A stretch of 64,000 nucleotides of DNA from Devosia sp. Its GTDB lineage: Bacteria; Pseudomonadota; Alphaproteobacteria; Rhizobiales; Devosiaceae. Numbering within the stretch: position 1 is the first letter of the stretch; every line of letters starts with the position of its first letter. Below are positions 14,772 through 47,055 of the stretch, piece after piece. The position numbers and the translations under genes were made by a program. Below the pieces are notes generated by a model. It saw only the letters and a program-made list of their open reading frames with translations, was not told where the DNA came from and ran no database searches. Where the stretch lies: NCBI GenBank assembly GCA_036675975.1, contig JAKFDU010000032.1:5-64004 (forward strand). The letters are read 5' to 3'.

Positions 14772-15692
14772 TTAGCCGATAACGATCCTGATCCGGTTGC
14801 CGAACGGGTCCTGGGTCTCGATGCCGCCCTCGACTGCCAAAACCGGCGCCTTGCCCGCCACCAGCCGGCTCTCGACACCCTCGAGTGTCACCGCATCCGG
14901 CACTGATATGGTGAACCAGCGCAACCCAGCAGCGCCTGATGACGGCAGGCCTGCATTGGGCCCGGACCAGATGTTGAAGGCAATGGCATGGGGCATGTAG
15001 TCGAGCCCAACATCGCCCATGCCGAAGGACGAAATCAGCAGGAAGCCGGCAAAGCCGATGACATCGCGATAGAAATTCATGGCAATGTGGAGGTCATTCA
15101 CATGCACATGCACGTGCCCTATCCGCGTGCCCTCGGGCATCCGTGACGCCAATGTCGGAGCGGGCCCCAGTTCGGCCAGCAAACGGTCCATGTCGATGGG
15201 CTCGCGCCCCGAATGCGGCTTGCCACCTGAGGTCACCGCATAGGTCTCGCCCTTGTCGGGGTCACCCAGCGAGCCGCGCCACGGCGTTTCGAAGGTGATT
15301 TCGATACCATTGCCATCGAGGTCCCAAAGGTAGATCGCCTCGGAGACAAGATGATCGGTCGGGGAAATGCGCACATTGCGCTGCAGCGCCCGGACCGCCA
15401 TCTGCGCCAGGTCGGCTCGCTTGGGCACGTGGATAGCCACGTGATAGAGCCCGATCGTGCGCGGCACCACCGGTCGCACTGCGCCGGTCTGGAGCACGAT
15501 CAGCGGCTTGCCGCCGGCGCCCAGCGTCAGCGCATTGCCATGTTCGGCGATGAGATCGAGGCCCACCACGTCCTGCCAGATGGCGAGCGCCTTGGCGCGG
15601 TCGGTCACCGCTATATGCACCGGGCCCAACTTGGTGGTCAGTGGCAGGATAGGCGCGGACCTCACATTGGTCGAATGGGATGTGTCGATCAT
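14772..15692 (-). CDS. Two-domain VOC/glyoxalase protein, CatE-like
   Basis: LGPVHIAV, GLYHVAIHVP, DHLVSEAIYLxDxDGNGIE, IGHVHVHV, GLRWF; start at ATG 15692 with GGAG RBS. Confidence 0.8.
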   Translation of the reverse strand: MIDTSHSTNVRSAPILPLTTKLGPVHIAVTDRAKALAIWQDVVGLDLIAEHGNALTLGAGGKPLIVLQTGAVRPVVPRTIGLYHVAIHVPKRADLAQMAVRALQRNVRISPTDHLVSEAIYLWDLDGNGIEITFETPWRGSLGDPDKGETYAVTSGGKPHSGREPIDMDRLLAELGPAPTLASRMPEGTRIGHVHVHVNDLHIAMNFYRDVIGFAGFLLISSFGMGDVGLDYMPHAIAFNIWSGPNAGLPSSGAAGLRWFTISVPDAVTLEGVESRLVAGKAPVLAVEGGIETQDPFGNRIRIVIG

Positions 15693-15855
15693 GGCGATCT
15701 CCAGGTTCAGCATTGCCCAGCATATAGGCCGAGCTCAAGGCTCTCACCATCGGGTCCCCGGCGAAGGCATTGTTCGGTAAAGCGCTGGCAATGCGATGCA
15801 GCTTCCCCGCCCAGCGCTTTCGTGCTGAACTCGGTGCGGATTTGGGAGGCCACAA

Positions 15856-16182
15856 ATGAAACTGAGAAGTCTGATCGCGGCTGTTGCGCTGCTGGCAAGC
15901 ACCAGCGCGGCCATGGCGAATTGCTACGAGATCATCGGCTGCGATGACAGCGACTACTTCCAGCGCGGCGACCTGCGGCAGCTCAGCTGCCAATCGCTGT
16001 GGGAGGTGCGCAACCTTATCTACCAGCAGAACGGCTACTGCTTCCAGACCGACCGGGCTCGTCGCGCCTTTGGCAATCAGGGCTGCTGGATCAACGAACA
16101 GGGCCAGGTGCGGCTCAACGCCTATGAGCGCGAAAACGTCGCCCAGATCACCGCGGTCGAGAATTCCAAGGGTTGTAACTGA
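15856..16182 (+). CDS. Secreted YARHG-domain protein
   Basis: Signal peptide; LWEVRNLIYQQNGYCF matches the YARHG core; LNAYERENV; six Cys; GGGAGG RBS. Confidence 0.75.
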   Translation: MKLRSLIAAVALLASTSAAMANCYEIIGCDDSDYFQRGDLRQLSCQSLWEVRNLIYQQNGYCFQTDRARRAFGNQGCWINEQGQVRLNAYERENVAQITAVENSKGCN

Positions 16183-16205
16183 CGATCGGACTATCAGTCG
16201 GCTTT

Positions 16206-16250
16206 CCCTCCCCTTGTCGGGAGGGTGGCCCCGAAGGGGTCCGGTGGGGC
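16206..16250. repeat. CCCTCCCC...GGGAGGG-type palindromic repeat, single arm
   Basis: CCCTCCCCTTGTCGGGAGGGTGGCCCCGAAGGGGTCCGGTGGGG; related to copies at 24282, 32558 and 41392. Confidence 0.6.
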
Positions 16251-16285
16251 TATCCGTCCGCAAACGCAGCGGCGTCACTCCCCCC

Positions 16286-16314
16286 AAAAAAACGCCGGGG
16301 CTCACACCCCGGCG
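16286..16314 (-). terminator. Intrinsic terminator of the ABC exporter gene
   Basis: 8-bp GC stem CGCCGGGG/CCCCGGCG with 6-nt loop, followed by T7 on the minus strand, just after stop 16323. Confidence 0.8.
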
Positions 16315-16322
16315 CTTTCGTT

Positions 16323-18122
16323 TCACGCGATCTTCAGGCCCTTGGTCAGCTCCAGCGCCTGCCGCTCGAACAGCCGACGATAGATACCGCCACCGAGGCG
16401 GATCAACTCGGCATGGTTGCCCTCCTCGACGATGCGGCCCTTGTCGAAGACCAGCAGCCGGTCGAGCGCCCTGACCGTCGACAGCCGGTGCGCGATGACC
16501 AGCGTGGTCCGGCCGACCATCAGCCGTTCCATCGCCTGCTGGATCTGCACCTCGCTCTCGCTGTCGAGGCTCGATGTGGCCTCGTCCAGGATCAGCACCC
16601 GCGCATCGGCGAGGAAAGCCCGGGCGATGGCGACGCGCTGGCGTTCGCCGCCCGAGAGCTTCACGCCGCGTTCGCCGACCAGGGTTTCGTAGCCCTTGGG
16701 CAGATCGAGGATGAAGTCATGCGCGTTGGCCTGCTTGGCCGCCAGCTCGATCTCGGCGCGCGTGGCGTCGGGGCGGGCATAGGCGATGTTCTCGGCCAGG
16801 GTGCGGTGGAACAGGATCGGCTCCTGCTGCACGATGGCGATCTGGCCGCGCAGGCTCGCCTGCTTGCACTCCGCGATGTTCTGTCCGTCGATGGTGATGG
16901 CACCCGATTTCACGTCGTAGAGCCGCTGGATCAGCTTGACGAAGGTTGTCTTGCCCGACCCAGAGTGACCCACAAGGCCCACCCGCTCGCCCGGCGCGAT
17001 GCGCACCGAGAAGTCGCGGTAGAGCGGCGTCGGATGGGCGCCATACTGGAAGGTGACATGGTCAAAGACGATCTCGCCCTCGCCGATGGCAATGGCCTTG
17101 GCGCCAGCCTTGTCATCGATACCGAGCGGCGTGCGGTCGAGCGCAACCAGCTCTTCCATATCGTTGACGGCACGCTGCAGGTTGCGGATGTGCTGGCCCA
17201 CGTCCCGCAGGTAGCCCTGCAGCACGAAGAACATGGCGAGCACGAAGGTGATGTCGCCGGGTGTCGCCAGCCCGCGCTGCCACATCAGCAGACCTGTGCC
17301 CAGAATGCCGGCCTGCATGGTCACCATCATGAAGCCCTGGATGGTGCCGCTCAGCGTGCCGCGCTTCCAGGTGCGGCGCGTGCGGTTATCCCACTTGCCC
17401 AGCACGTGGCGCAGGCGCTGCTCTTCACGCTCCTCCGCGCCGAAGGCCTTGACCACGGAGTTGCAGCTAACCGCATCCGCCAGGGCGCCGCCAAGCCGGG
17501 TGTCCCAGGCATTGGCAAGGCTGGCCGCCGGCGAGACGAAGCCCATGGACAGAGCCACCGTGACGCCGATGTAAATCACCGAGCCGAGGCCCACGACGAG
17601 ACCCATGACCGGCCAGTAGGAGCCCAGGATGACCGTGGCGCCGACCAGCATGACGATGGATGGCAACAGCGCGATCAGCAGCACGTCGTTGAGCGAATCG
17701 AGCGCCCACATGCCGCGGGTGATCTTGCGCACGGTGGAGCCGGCGAAGCTGTTGGCATGCCAGTCGGTCGAAAAGCGCTGCACGCGGTGGAAGCCGTTAT
17801 TGACGATCTCGGCCATCATGCGGATCGTCAGCCGGATGATGCCCTGAAAGATGAACCAGCGCAGGATGACGCTGGTCAGCCCCAGGCCGACCACGATGGC
17901 AAAGGCGCGCAGGGCCGCGTCCGCGCCGGTGCCGGTACCCCCGGCAATGGCATCGACGATCTGGCCCGAAAACACCGGCACCATGACTTCGGCAAGCGTC
18001 GACACGATCACCAGCACGCAGATGATGGCGATCAGGGCCGGACGGCCCGACCAGTGGCGGAAAGTAAAGCCGAGCACGTTGCGATAGGCATCGGCGCGAA
18101 AATCGAGTTTCTTGCGACTCAT
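16323..18122 (-). CDS. ABC exporter, fused TMD-NBD half transporter (MsbA/multidrug type)
   Basis: Six TM helices, Walker A GHSGSGKT, signature LSGGERQR, Walker B ILDEATS, IAHRLST. Confidence 0.92.
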   Translation of the reverse strand: MSRKKLDFRADAYRNVLGFTFRHWSGRPALIAIICVLVIVSTLAEVMVPVFSGQIVDAIAGGTGTGADAALRAFAIVVGLGLTSVILRWFIFQGIIRLTIRMMAEIVNNGFHRVQRFSTDWHANSFAGSTVRKITRGMWALDSLNDVLLIALLPSIVMLVGATVILGSYWPVMGLVVGLGSVIYIGVTVALSMGFVSPAASLANAWDTRLGGALADAVSCNSVVKAFGAEEREEQRLRHVLGKWDNRTRRTWKRGTLSGTIQGFMMVTMQAGILGTGLLMWQRGLATPGDITFVLAMFFVLQGYLRDVGQHIRNLQRAVNDMEELVALDRTPLGIDDKAGAKAIAIGEGEIVFDHVTFQYGAHPTPLYRDFSVRIAPGERVGLVGHSGSGKTTFVKLIQRLYDVKSGAITIDGQNIAECKQASLRGQIAIVQQEPILFHRTLAENIAYARPDATRAEIELAAKQANAHDFILDLPKGYETLVGERGVKLSGGERQRVAIARAFLADARVLILDEATSSLDSESEVQIQQAMERLMVGRTTLVIAHRLSTVRALDRLLVFDKGRIVEEGNHAELIRLGGGIYRRLFERQALELTKGLKIA

Positions 18123-18293
18123 ATTGGCAGCCCGGTCCCGTTATCCGGCGACCGGCCCTCAAAACACAGGGATGAAAGGCACAGCCGGAACGGGGCGAAA
18201 ATGATCCCGTCAGATCAAGTGGGGCTGTGATGGTAAGAACCGCTGATGGCAGTCCTCGGGGCTAACCCAAGGAGGGCCACGGATGGCAACGAC

Positions 18294-18341
18294 CTAACGT
18301 CGAGGGTTGCCCATAGGGAGAGGGATGAATGTCACTGCCAT
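18294..18341 (-). CDS. Putative leader peptide MAVTFIPLPMGNPRR (15 aa)
   Basis: GGGAGG RBS 6 nt before ATG 18341; TAG at 18296-18294; lies in the 5-prime leader of the ABC exporter. Confidence 0.45.
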   Translation of the reverse strand: MAVTFIPLPMGNPRR

Positions 18342-18374
18342 ACAACGCCTCCCTGGTTCGAGATCTGAAGCGGT

Positions 18375-18409
18375 GGACGGTTTGTAGCGAAACCGTCCGG
18401 GCTTGCCAA
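18375..18409 (-). promoter_or_regulatory. Candidate sigma70 promoter with overlapping 9-6-9 inverted-repeat operator
   Basis: TTGGCA (18409-18404)-N17-TACAAA (18386-18381); GGACGGTTT-N6-AAACCGTCC at 18375-18398. Confidence 0.5.
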
Positions 18410-18594
18410 CAGGGTATTTGCAACGTCGCAACCGATGATGCGGGAAAGACACAGGACGCGGCGCAGTTGCGTCACGCTCTGCGTTCCATCAGACATAGTC
18501 GGAGTGGCCGCTCGTCGCATGAGCGGTCTTGTAAGGTCTCGGGCCTCGAGGAAACAGTATAGGGCGGGCTAGTCGCTTGGGACCTGGGTCGGTT

Positions 18595-18720
18595 TCAGCG
18601 CGTCTCGGCCCGATAGACCTCGATGCCGCGCGTCGACCATTGGGCATAGGCCAACGCGGCCACGAATACACCGAACAGCGTCAACACCGCTGTTATGACC
18701 AGATGCAGATTGGCAGCCAT
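18595..18720 (-). CDS. 41-aa single-pass membrane microprotein
   Basis: MAANLHLVITAVLTLFGVFVAALAYAQWSTRGIEVYRAETR; GAGGAG RBS 6 nt upstream; one hydrophobic helix. Confidence 0.7.
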   Translation of the reverse strand: MAANLHLVITAVLTLFGVFVAALAYAQWSTRGIEVYRAETR

Positions 18721-18879: not shown

Positions 18880-20112
18880 ATGACCATCGATCCCGTCAAG
18901 CTCGACAAGCTCGCCCAGGTTGCCATCAAGGTCGGCCTGCAATTGGCCGAGGGCCAGGACCTGATCATGACCGCGCCGATGACGGCCGCGCCACTGGTCC
19001 GCCGCATCACCGAGCATGCCTACAAGGCCGGCGCCGGACTGGTCACGACAATCTATTCAGACGAGGAAGCCACCCTCGCCCGCTACAAGCACGCCAACAA
19101 TGCCAGCTTCGACAAGGCCGCCGGTTGGCTCTATTCGGGCATGGCTGAAGCCTTCAAGAACAATGCCGCGCGCCTCGCCATTGCGGGCGACAATCCGATG
19201 ATGCTGGCCGGCCAGGACCCCGACAAGGTGACCCGCGCCATGCGCGCCAATTCGGCTGCCTACAAGCCGGCACTCCAACTCATCACCGGCTTCGATATCA
19301 ACTGGAACATCGTCTCCTATCCCAGCGCCGCCTGGGCCAAGCTGGTATTCCCCGAGGACAGCGAGGAGGAAGCCGTCACCAAGCTGGCCGACGCCATCTT
19401 CAAGGCGTCGCGTGTCGATCAGGACGATCCGATCGCCGCCTGGGCCGAGCACAATGCCAATCTCAAAAAGCGCTGGACCTGGCTCAACGGCAAGAGCTTT
19501 GCCTCGCTCAAATATACCGGCCCCGGCACCGATCTCACCGTGGGCCTCGCCGACGGTCACCGCTGGAAGGGCGGCGCGTCGGAAGCCAAGAACGGCATTA
19601 CCTGCAACCCCAACATTCCGACCGAGGAAGTGTTCACCACGCCGCACAAGCTGCGCGTCGAGGGTCATGTCGCCGGCACCAAGCCGCTCAGCCACAATGG
19701 CGCGCTGATCGAGGAGATGCAGGCCCGCTTCGAGGGCGGACGGCTGGTCGAATTCAAGGCCGCCAAGAACCAGGACCTGTTCAACAAGGTGCTCGACACC
19801 GACGAGGGCGGACGCCGTCTCGGCGAAGTGGCGCTGGTGCCCCATTCCTCGCCGATCTCGGCCTCCGGCATCCTGTTCTTCAACACGCTCTATGATGAAA
19901 ACGCTTCTTGCCATATTGCGCAGGGCCAGTGCTATTCGGACTGCTTCGTCGACGGCAAGAACCTCACGCCGGAGCAGATCTCGGCCCAGGGCGGCAACAC
20001 CTCCAACATCCACATCGACTGGATGATCGGCAGCGACAAGATCGACATCGATGGTGTGCACGCCGATGGCAGCACCGAACCAGTGATGCGCGGCGGCGAG
20101 TGGGCCAACTAG
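18880..20112 (+). CDS. Aminopeptidase, M29 (AmpS/PepS) family
   Basis: PNIPTEEVFTTP, RRLGEVALV, LYDENASCHIA, SNIHIDWMIG motifs. Confidence 0.92.
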   Translation: MTIDPVKLDKLAQVAIKVGLQLAEGQDLIMTAPMTAAPLVRRITEHAYKAGAGLVTTIYSDEEATLARYKHANNASFDKAAGWLYSGMAEAFKNNAARLAIAGDNPMMLAGQDPDKVTRAMRANSAAYKPALQLITGFDINWNIVSYPSAAWAKLVFPEDSEEEAVTKLADAIFKASRVDQDDPIAAWAEHNANLKKRWTWLNGKSFASLKYTGPGTDLTVGLADGHRWKGGASEAKNGITCNPNIPTEEVFTTPHKLRVEGHVAGTKPLSHNGALIEEMQARFEGGRLVEFKAAKNQDLFNKVLDTDEGGRRLGEVALVPHSSPISASGILFFNTLYDENASCHIAQGQCYSDCFVDGKNLTPEQISAQGGNTSNIHIDWMIGSDKIDIDGVHADGSTEPVMRGGEWAN

Positions 20113-46933: not shown

Positions 46934-46963
46934 GTCAAACACCATATGTGAACAGATTAAGTA

Positions 46964-47055
46964 GGAGGCTGGCAACGACCCGTGAAGGTCTCGTTGGGGC
47001 TGCTTCCTTCCGGACCTGACCCGGTTGGCGAGGAACACGTCCGCGCCAACCTCCC
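46964..47055 (-). ncRNA. ffs: Signal recognition particle RNA (4.5S)
   Basis: Minus strand contains GGGTCAGGTCCGGAAGGAAGCAGCC (domain IV); GGAGGTTGGC pairs with GCCAGCCTCC; lies upstream of dnaX. Confidence 0.95.

Follow-up and report, generated by a model that had tools for sequence, protein, structure and literature searches.

The window analysed here is a stretch of 64,000 nucleotides (nt) of Devosia sp. DNA. It includes, on the minus strand, the gene of an ATP-binding cassette (ABC) exporter (16323-18122) and, immediately 5′ of it, a leader (18123-18409) that carries a short upstream open reading frame (uORF). The exporter (599 amino acids, aa) has fused transmembrane and ATPase domains (Pfam ABC_membrane and ABC_tran). 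Judged from its sequence, it is a generic half-transporter of the ABCB type (Sav1866/MsbA-like); its nearest relatives in the PDB are halves of ABCB1 and ABCB19, NaAtm1 and Sav1866, and its score is under every NCBIfam equivalog cut-off. The divergent neighbour, on the plus strand, encodes an M29 aminopeptidase (18880-20112). The intergenic region comprises 757 base pairs, and all leader elements are found in its exporter-proximal 290 base pairs. A first-pass annotation of the window had read the leader as a ribosome-sensing switch for a drug or peptide exporter. The promoter-like TTGGCA-N17-TACAAA, the Shine-Dalgarno sequence (SD) GGGAGG, the 15-codon uORF, the leader of about 170 nt and the exporter ATG devoid of a good SD had all been placed correctly on the minus strand.

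The arrangement is conserved with the exporter. Relatives were scanned with one genome per species, which gave 80 loci. The identity of the exporter in this set is 76-97% in Devosia and about 85% in Rhizobium, Agrobacterium, Neorhizobium and others. The 330-360 nt immediately 5′ of the exporter show about 69% nucleotide identity between Devosia and Rhizobiaceae; the DNA beyond is not alignable. Every Devosia or Rhizobiaceae locus includes a uORF of 15-17 codons ending with TAG, and the differences in uORF length are multiples of three. TTGGCAA and the core GGAG of the SD are invariant in these loci, and GGGAGG is found in most of them. The -10 hexamer, the first 20 or so transcribed bases (CACCGCUUCAGAUCGAAC) and GCGUUG-N-AUG are near-invariant. 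An order-wide sample included 301 genomes; the exporter was found in 46 of them (60-85% identity; 49 matches). A uORF of 13-28 codons with a strong SD, starting 158-250 nt before the exporter ATG, was found in all but three of the 49 matches; the same detection rule finds a uORF upstream of 2.7% of 1,327 other long open reading frames (ORFs) of the Devosia genome. The three matches devoid of a uORF are second copies or divergent homologues, and the same genomes also hold a uORF-bearing copy. The uORF is thus kept in orthologous leaders, the point on which the first-pass annotation had staked its switch. With its strong SD, it is the best-conserved element of the leader, both within the order and outside it. 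Homologues in other alphaproteobacterial orders (47-61% identity) often have the arrangement too, with a near-identical GGGAGGCnUGCAUG start region. Within the order, the leader is present in Rhizobium leguminosarum, R. etli, R. tropici, Agrobacterium, Neorhizobium and many further lineages; in the Devosia genome, nhmmer finds this copy only. The arrangement is more than chance, by a wide margin.

The leader had been called undescribed, and this holds for the sources searched. Rfam 15 gives no match in the region, either at the gathering threshold or at E<=10, and none at E<=1 in the leaders of loci L046, L039, L089 and L099. The full-text literature searched, including uORF and Ribo-seq studies of Sinorhizobium, contains no description of such a leader. 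Another possible cause of the conservation, a plus-strand ORF of 77 aa (18329-18562), was rejected: it matches relatives over its first 42 or so residues only, these overlie the conserved promoter and leader start, and only a few close Devosia relatives match further. This ORF resembles out-of-frame GC-rich sequence; antisense ORFs of at least 60 aa are found in 57 of 78 loci. On plasmid p1 of Sinorhizobium sp. B11 (L082 5583-5801), a 72-aa "hypothetical protein" (LVY75_06735) is annotated antisense to the leader start. This annotation is probably spurious, since its equivalent in the window is not conserved beyond the overlap with the promoter and leader start.

The putative promoter (18381-18409, minus strand) consists of a -35 element TTGGCA (18409-18404), a 17-nt spacer and a -10 element TACAAA (18386-18381). 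TTGGCAA occurs once in each of the 80 loci, 263-297 nt before the exporter ATG, and its alignment columns are invariant. A consensus promoter scan gives no call at TTGGCA-N17-TACAAA, because the -10 hexamer is non-canonical. Conservation, and not the scan, supports the sigma70-like promoter that had been proposed at first pass. The predicted 5′ end of the transcript (18362-18374, minus strand) is ACCGCUUCAGAUC; the transcription start site, about 18374, is derived solely from the position of the -10 element and promoter. A conserved motif, TGTGTCTTTCCCGCATCA (TGTGnCnTTnnnGCATCA), is found at 18436-18453 (minus strand), about 27 nt 5′ of the -35 element, and is kept in the alignment of Devosia and Rhizobiaceae. 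It may be a transcription-factor site, which would add a layer of control to the leader. Locus L088 holds TGTGACACGGTTGCATCA, which is similar to TGTGnCnTTnnnGCATCA. In L095 and L097 (lineage f34), the uORF (MTRFALYLSMIPVRS, UAA stop) is found about 8-10 nt after a TTGTCA-N17-CATAAG promoter and about 300 nt before the exporter; read by eye, this uORF may be translated in a leaderless or near-leaderless manner.

At the other end of the leader, the exporter initiation module (18123-18164, minus strand) consists of UUUUGAGG (GAGG at 18160-18157), a hairpin CCGGUCGCCGGAUAACGGGACCGG (18155-18132), the 9-nt GCUGCCAAU and the AUG. In nearly all lineages, an SD-like GGAG, GAGG or GGGA abuts a CCGG...CCGG hairpin of 19-26 nt, which is followed by 8-10 nt and the AUG. 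The hairpin covaries (GC/AU/GU and UG/CG/UA). No SD is found within 10 nt of the exporter ATG. By its geometry, the module reads as a discontinuous (split) ribosome-binding site, which explains an exporter ATG that has no good SD beside it. The formed hairpin would bring SD and AUG within working distance; capture of its 5′ arm elsewhere would lead to the loss of both the SD and the geometry. A second, translational layer of control is plausible on these grounds, and the module would be a natural and recurrent example of a split ribosome-binding site.

The SD of the uORF, GGGAGG, is located at 18348-18353 (minus strand); its bases G26, G27, A28 and G29 are invariant in the 67-sequence alignment A1. 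The uORF (18294-18341, minus strand; ATG at 18341, TAG at 18296-18294) comprises 15 codons and UAG and encodes MAVTFIPLPMGNPRR; 171 nt separate it from the exporter ATG (18122). The C-terminal part of the peptide follows a pattern P-x-G-x-x-R-R/H. Of 40 lineage representatives, 38% have P at -7, 45% have G at -5, 45% have R at -2 and 58% have R or H at -1; the overall composition of the peptides for P, G, R and H residues is 7-12%, so that the C-terminal positions are enriched 4-6 fold. In the Devosia and Rhizobiaceae alignment, the P, G and R codons vary at their third position with the amino acid kept constant, which points to selection on the peptide. The N-terminal two thirds vary freely but form a hydrophobic segment, mostly with T or A at position 2. 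The uORF of the window closes with two rare sense codons, CGA and CGU, which account for 3.5% and 8.9% of the Arg codons of the genome. The stop codon is UAG in about 80% of the sequences and about 65% of the lineages, against 35% of the stops of long ORFs of the Devosia genome and 19% of those of chance uORFs. Among 1,395 long high-GC3 ORFs of this genome, stop usage is TAG 35%, TGA 47% and TAA 17%; a TAG share of 35% seems high for a high-GC alphaproteobacterium.

The 15-residue peptide could itself be the product, either a substrate of the exporter or a small trans-acting regulator like peTrpL of Sinorhizobium (PMC7298713). The strong SD, the conserved C-terminal motif and the constant association with one exporter would fit this, as would the peTrpL precedent. 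It is nevertheless very unlikely: the peptide has neither a signal nor a double-glycine leader, the exporter has no peptidase domain, conservation does not extend to the N-terminal two thirds, and a peptide gene would need neither a structured and covarying spacer of 171 nt nor a split ribosome-binding site.

Around the stop codon, the RNA can form a hairpin GGCAAC...GUUGCC (18285-18311, minus strand) with UAG in its loop; six of its nine pairs show double changes. The first-pass annotation had also placed a hairpin over the uORF stop, and this one is kept with compensatory changes. An apical hairpin loop holds the stop codon in 24 of 35 lineage representatives, where shuffled flanks would give 14.3. 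Three terminator-like candidates follow on the minus strand. The first (18232-18282) consists of a GC-rich hairpin GUGGC..GCCAU (18280-18246), CAGCGG (18245-18240) and a U-rich UUCUUACC (18239-18232). GCGG and the following U tract are near-invariant, 40-45 nt after the uORF stop. The hairpin has a lineage-specific apical extension and a UA to CG change at its base; in some Devosia (L078, L080, L005, L008) the candidate is a simple hairpin with a U tract. The second and third (18172-18229) comprise a long stem CACAGCC/GGCUGUG around both the highly conserved UGAUCUGACGGGAUCA-UUUU (18217-18198) and a CGGG/CCCG helix, and then CCUUUCAU. Double changes are found in five of nine pairs of the outer helix CACAGCC/GGCUGUG and in three of four pairs of the inner helix CGGG/CCCG.

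Covariation, which the first-pass annotation had proposed as a check, was assessed on alignment A1 with a hand-assembled set of helices: SD/anti-SD, the stop hairpin, the GC-rich hairpin, CACAGCC/GGCUGUG with the inner CGGG/CCCG, the pre-AUG hairpin, UCAGAUC/GAUCUGA and ACCGC/GCGGU. Pairing holds in 87% of the cells of this set and falls to 34-46% in controls whose partners are shifted by one to three columns. Double changes are seen in 24 pairs, whereas shuffles gave 13.2±2.2 and never reached this number (0 of 500); the shuffle control ignores relatedness and the sample is essentially two large clades, so independent covariation events are few. The clearest covariation is found in UCAGAUC/GAUCUGA at the 5′ end (UA to GC, one clade), at the base of the GC-rich hairpin (UA to CG) and in the hairpin before the exporter AUG (GC/AU/GU). 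The SD of the uORF can pair with CCCUCUCCC (18324-18316), inside the uORF; this helix is 92% paired with zero double changes, and its mean pair probability is 0.53. Whole-leader folding by RNAalifold on a MAFFT alignment gave a weak and uninformative consensus. Folding by segment and by clade performed better, yet the long-range solutions differ between the two clades.

Other pairings listed at first pass are local to the window or its nearest relatives and do not exceed chance. The uORF-start pairing AUGGCAGU/ACUGCCAU (18253-18246) is exact in the window but has disappeared from the closest Devosia relatives, L002 showing ACCGCCGC instead. Rhizobiaceae do not keep GGCCCUC/GAGGGCC (GGCCCGCC vs GAGGACC), which also failed the helix scan. 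CCUUGGG/CCCGAGG is the lineage-specific apical extension of the GC-rich hairpin and is restricted to the window, L001, L002 and L007. Conservation does not favour the particular switch drawn at first pass, made of the uORF-start pairing, GGCCCUC/GAGGGCC and the UGAUCU stem as attenuator.

A structured RNA with a metabolite or a protein as its ligand, the uORF being accessory (standby loading of ribosomes or stabilisation of the RNA), would account for the very strong conservation in and around UGAUCUGACGGGAUCAUUUCGUCUCCCG inside a covarying stem, for the covarying long-range pairing of the 5′ and 3′ parts and for the conserved third codon positions of the uORF in Rhizobiaceae. The domain around UGAUCUGACGGGAUCAUUUCGUCUCCCG is however conserved in Devosia and Rhizobiaceae only, with unrelated sequence in other families, which nonetheless retain the uORF with its SD and the split ribosome-binding site. 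The peptide motif is maintained through synonymous changes and no Rfam family is matched. An RNA sensor of this type is considered quite unlikely.

Several conserved pairings are mutually exclusive. GAUCUGA (18216-18210) can pair with UCAGAUC at the 5′ end of the transcript (91% paired, 17 cells altered on both sides, UA to GC change in one clade), with UAGGUC at the stop codon, or locally with GGAUCA. The 5′ ACCGC can pair with GCGGU just before the U tract (95% paired), and GCGG pairs with the transcript 5′ end in single-sequence folds of the 67 leaders. CGGUUUU, just after the GC-rich hairpin, can pair with AGGNCCG of the exporter start (98% paired over the 67 leaders), which excludes the pre-AUG hairpin; covariation of CGGUUUU/AGGACCG is no greater than in shuffles. 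Such mutually exclusive pairings have the appearance expected of a switch, and the alignment is silent on which states would be used.

They could serve purely translational control: the full leader would always be made, translation of the uORF or stalling on it would refold the RNA, and the split ribosome-binding site would be either formed or sequestered, with CGGUUUU/AGGNCCG as the candidate sequestering helix and Rho termination as a secondary effect, as in toiL-topAI. This is rather unlikely, even if much fits it. The candidate helix is widely paired and excludes the ribosome-binding-site hairpin, the exporter SD has a mean unpaired probability of only 0.21, the split module is the most widely conserved RNA feature, no canonical terminator was found, and toiL provides a precedent. 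On the other side, the uORF is 171 nt from the exporter start, and both arms of the ribosome-binding-site hairpin (18155-18132) lie outside it, whereas translation attenuation of the ermC, cat or cmlA type would place an arm inside. Masking of ribosome footprints left the accessibility of the exporter SD at equilibrium unaffected, the covariation of CGGUUUU/AGGACCG is within the shuffle range, and the conserved U tract and C-rich spacer are left unexplained.

The leader also has features that could promote termination of transcription. In many lineages, not all, a dedicated hairpin scan found GC-rich hairpins with short U tracts behind them (UUUCC, UUUUC), 20-45 nt beyond the stop, and a second long hairpin with CCUUUC further downstream. 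In L115-L117, L020, L039 and L046, the closing stem starts within the last uORF codons. The UGAUCU-GACG-GGAUCA stem, read at first pass as an attenuator, is strongly conserved in sequence; it is a weak stem of 6 base pairs with two competing conserved pairings, and the consensus scan flagged it as a terminator at chance frequency at most. Downstream of the uORF, the leader is rich in C (0.352) and poor in G (0.275), C exceeding G in 95% of 64 leaders; the corresponding values upstream of the promoter are 0.295 and 0.300. By composition only, with much of it predicted to be paired, the post-uORF stretch resembles Rho-loading (rut-like) sites. Constant pairing of the transcript 5′ end with the bases preceding the U tract was not retained as a general rule: the per-sequence shuffle test was mostly not significant, and it is kept as a hypothesis only. 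Suggestive cases are ACCGC/GCGGU in Devosia and Rhizobiaceae and CCGCG/CGCGG-U6 in L089; L106 and L105 provide further ones.

The leader is probably a ribosome-dependent attenuator, with the dwell of a ribosome at the end of the uORF as its signal. This reading takes together the conserved features: the predicted promoter, the SD, the uORF, the peptide motif, the stop hairpin, the covarying helices, the C-rich spacer and the putative split ribosome-binding site. We infer from them that the uORF is translated and that ribosome dwell time is the signal, acting through an arrest and one or other kind of termination. A sigma-70-type promoter would start the transcript at about 18374, and a ribosome would load at GGGAGG and translate the 15 codons. 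The P-x-G-x-x-R-R/H tail, the two rare Arg codons and the UAG in a hairpin loop would together turn the end of the uORF into a site of programmed dwell or arrest. The held ribosome would melt the stop hairpin and cover the 10 or so nt that lead into the GC-rich hairpin with its U tract and into the C-rich, G-poor spacer. This would suppress premature termination, either intrinsic or Rho-dependent, and RNA polymerase would proceed into the exporter gene. Prompt release of the ribosome would allow a compact leader fold, with the result either that transcription stops or that a full-length leader keeps the exporter start closed. The exporter would be translated through the split ribosome-binding site (GGAG, CCGG...CCGG hairpin, 8-10 nt, AUG), as a second structural layer. 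The dwell could be lengthened by a drug that targets the ribosome, by a transported compound that the nascent chain senses, or by limiting release factor 1 (RF1). The first-pass annotation had likened the leader to the drug-induced stalling that switches antibiotic exporters and ABC-F genes; termination arrest, as in speFL and tnaC, and not the erm/ABC-F type, is suggested by the conserved C-terminal motif, the hairpin-loop position of UAG and the C-rich spacer. Ribosome sensing, induction by drugs and the exporter substrate are inferred, there as here.

The following points weigh against an attenuator governed by ribosome dwell. The peptide is poorly conserved before its final seven residues. 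In Rhizobiaceae, the uORF varies less at third codon positions than at first ones, so part of its conservation sits at the RNA level. UAG is not universal, about 7 of 20 lineages ending the uORF with UGA or UAA. The lineages counted are not independent samples. The consensus scan found no canonical intrinsic terminator in the window and only chance-level matches in relatives, one of which is the UGAUCC..GGAUCA stem. In most Rhizobiaceae, the GCGG preceding the U tract has no local partner and pairs with the transcript 5′ end in folds. Footprint masks at the stop, codon 4, codon 8 or initiation left the equilibrium pairing of the bases preceding the U tract unchanged (probabilities of 0.93, 0.92 and 0.92), as they did the accessibility of the exporter SD. 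No antiterminator of the 2:3 type, made of the 3′ arm of the stop hairpin and the GC-rich hairpin, was found, and the leader has no classical 1:2/2:3/3:4 attenuator. Co-transcriptional kinetics may be what matters.

The insensitivity of equilibrium folds to ribosome position would also suit a leader that is no switch, one that constitutively fixes low expression and mRNA stability for a costly membrane exporter. No inducer or regulator is evident, and the pairing of the 5′ end could merely protect the mRNA. So elaborate a layout, kept across the order and beyond, would however be difficult to account for if it regulated nothing. A passive leader would have no use for a peptide motif at fixed positions or a preferred stop codon, and mutually exclusive conserved pairings exist. 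A passive leader is therefore judged distinctly improbable.

A more specific form of the attenuator reading, given an outside chance, is that of a sensory arrest peptide. The tail would block RF1 at UAG only when a small molecule is on the ribosome, and the helix between the 5′ end and the bases preceding the U tract would stop transcription. The small molecule could be the exporter substrate, or a compound from soil or plants that targets the ribosome or a release factor. The exporter would then be made on demand, and the 5′-end helix may close only when no ribosome is on the enclosed uORF. If an arrest at UAG is true, the leader would be an alphaproteobacterial, RF1-linked addition to the very small set formed by TnaC, SpeFL, PepNL and MsrDL. 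For the ribosome-dependent attenuator in general, the uORF provides an experimental handle on the purpose of the exporter, since the signal that lengthens the dwell is likely to be related to the exported compound. The leader is shared by laboratory workhorses and agriculturally important bacteria, and the exporter is unusually well conserved, at about 85% amino-acid identity between Devosia and Rhizobium and 60-71% order-wide.

The exporter gene appears to be monocistronic, because the abutting ORF is spurious and the neighbours of the gene vary from genus to genus. This ORF of 354 aa (15262-16326, minus strand), which overlaps the exporter stop codon, was rejected as an operon partner and is almost certainly no gene: it has no family match, its composition is rich in Arg, Pro, Gly and Ala, and it matches relatives only across its overlap with a glyoxalase-family gene (14772-15713). 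On pSK02 of R. leguminosarum (locus L081 5200-5655), a gene of an Rrf2-family regulator, oriented like the leader, is found directly 5′ of it; Devosia and Sinorhizobium sp. B11 do not share this neighbour. In the window, a minus-strand ORF of 41 aa (18595-18720; MAANLHLVITAVLTLFGVFVAALAYAQWSTRGIEVYRAETR) with one hydrophobic helix is found 5′ of the leader promoter, on the same strand; the DNA around it is alignable only with L001, L002 and L004 (72-78%). The sole match in the window at the Rfam gathering threshold is the bacterial small signal recognition particle RNA (RF00169, 55.3 bits; 46960-47055, minus strand).

Among known systems, the closest geometry to that of the exporter start is found in gene 38 of phage T4, whose ribosome-binding site is discontinuous: a hairpin between SD and AUG brings both within working distance. 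Unlike it, the Devosia-type module is conserved in many bacterial lineages and is located 3′ of a uORF; its function would follow from its geometry. In toiL-topAI of E. coli, a uORF senses several classes of ribosome-targeting antibiotics (PMC12121999). Both leaders have a uORF in a long structured RNA; by analogy, the position of the ribosome would remodel the RNA near a distant ribosome-binding site, with Rho termination as a consequence, and the Devosia leader could likewise act as a generic sensor of translation stress. By contrast, toiL regulates a toxin-antitoxin pair and has neither a conserved C-terminal and stop motif nor a split ribosome-binding site. In Bacillus subtilis, bmrB controls the multidrug ABC exporter bmrCD by ribosome-mediated transcription attenuation (PMC4191407). 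There too, a leader peptide gene precedes an ABCB-type exporter, and in both cases the progress of the ribosome is proposed to decide read-through. The two differ in phylum and sequence; bmrB has a clear terminator and antiterminator, whereas no canonical terminator and no antiterminator of the 2:3 type was found in the Devosia leader, and it precedes the genes of a heterodimer, whereas a single gene of the homodimer type is found in Devosia.

In tnaC-tnaAB of E. coli (PMC8450073) and PepNL (PMC11890864), the nascent peptide blocks release at its own stop codon. As in the Devosia leader, the C-terminal residues and the choice of stop codon are what is mainly conserved; these systems use UGA with release factor 2, whereas the Devosia uORF mostly uses UAG and would depend on RF1. 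Their peptide motifs are unrelated to that of Devosia, where the arrest itself is a prediction. In layout, speFL and tnaC come nearest to the Devosia leader; its proposed logic is nearest to that of bmrB and toiL. In gamma-proteobacteria, speFL-speF encodes an ornithine-sensing arrest peptide with Arg34 followed by UAG, a spacer of 257 nt and Rho-dependent control (bioRxiv 10.1101/604074). Like the Devosia leader, it has a short uORF that closes with Arg and UAG and includes rare Arg codons, a hairpin that spans the 3′ end of this uORF, and a long spacer (257 vs 171 nt), and the logic proposed by analogy is the same, a ribosome held at the stop blocking premature termination. Their sequences are not similar: the 34 codons of speFL include a defined sensor domain, against 13-28 codons with only a P-x-G-x-x-R-R/H tail, and the rare Arg codons of speFL are in the middle of the uORF and not at its very end. 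speFL regulates a decarboxylase, whereas the Devosia leader precedes an ABC exporter; in the latter leader, Rho dependence, RF1 inhibition and a ligand would be predictions. Because an antiterminator was looked for and not found, this leader falls outside the structural definition of the classical trp/bmrB attenuator; in its sequence-level features it appears to be a better fit to termination-arrest leaders, and it is likely to belong to the familiar kind of uORF/leader-peptide attenuators.

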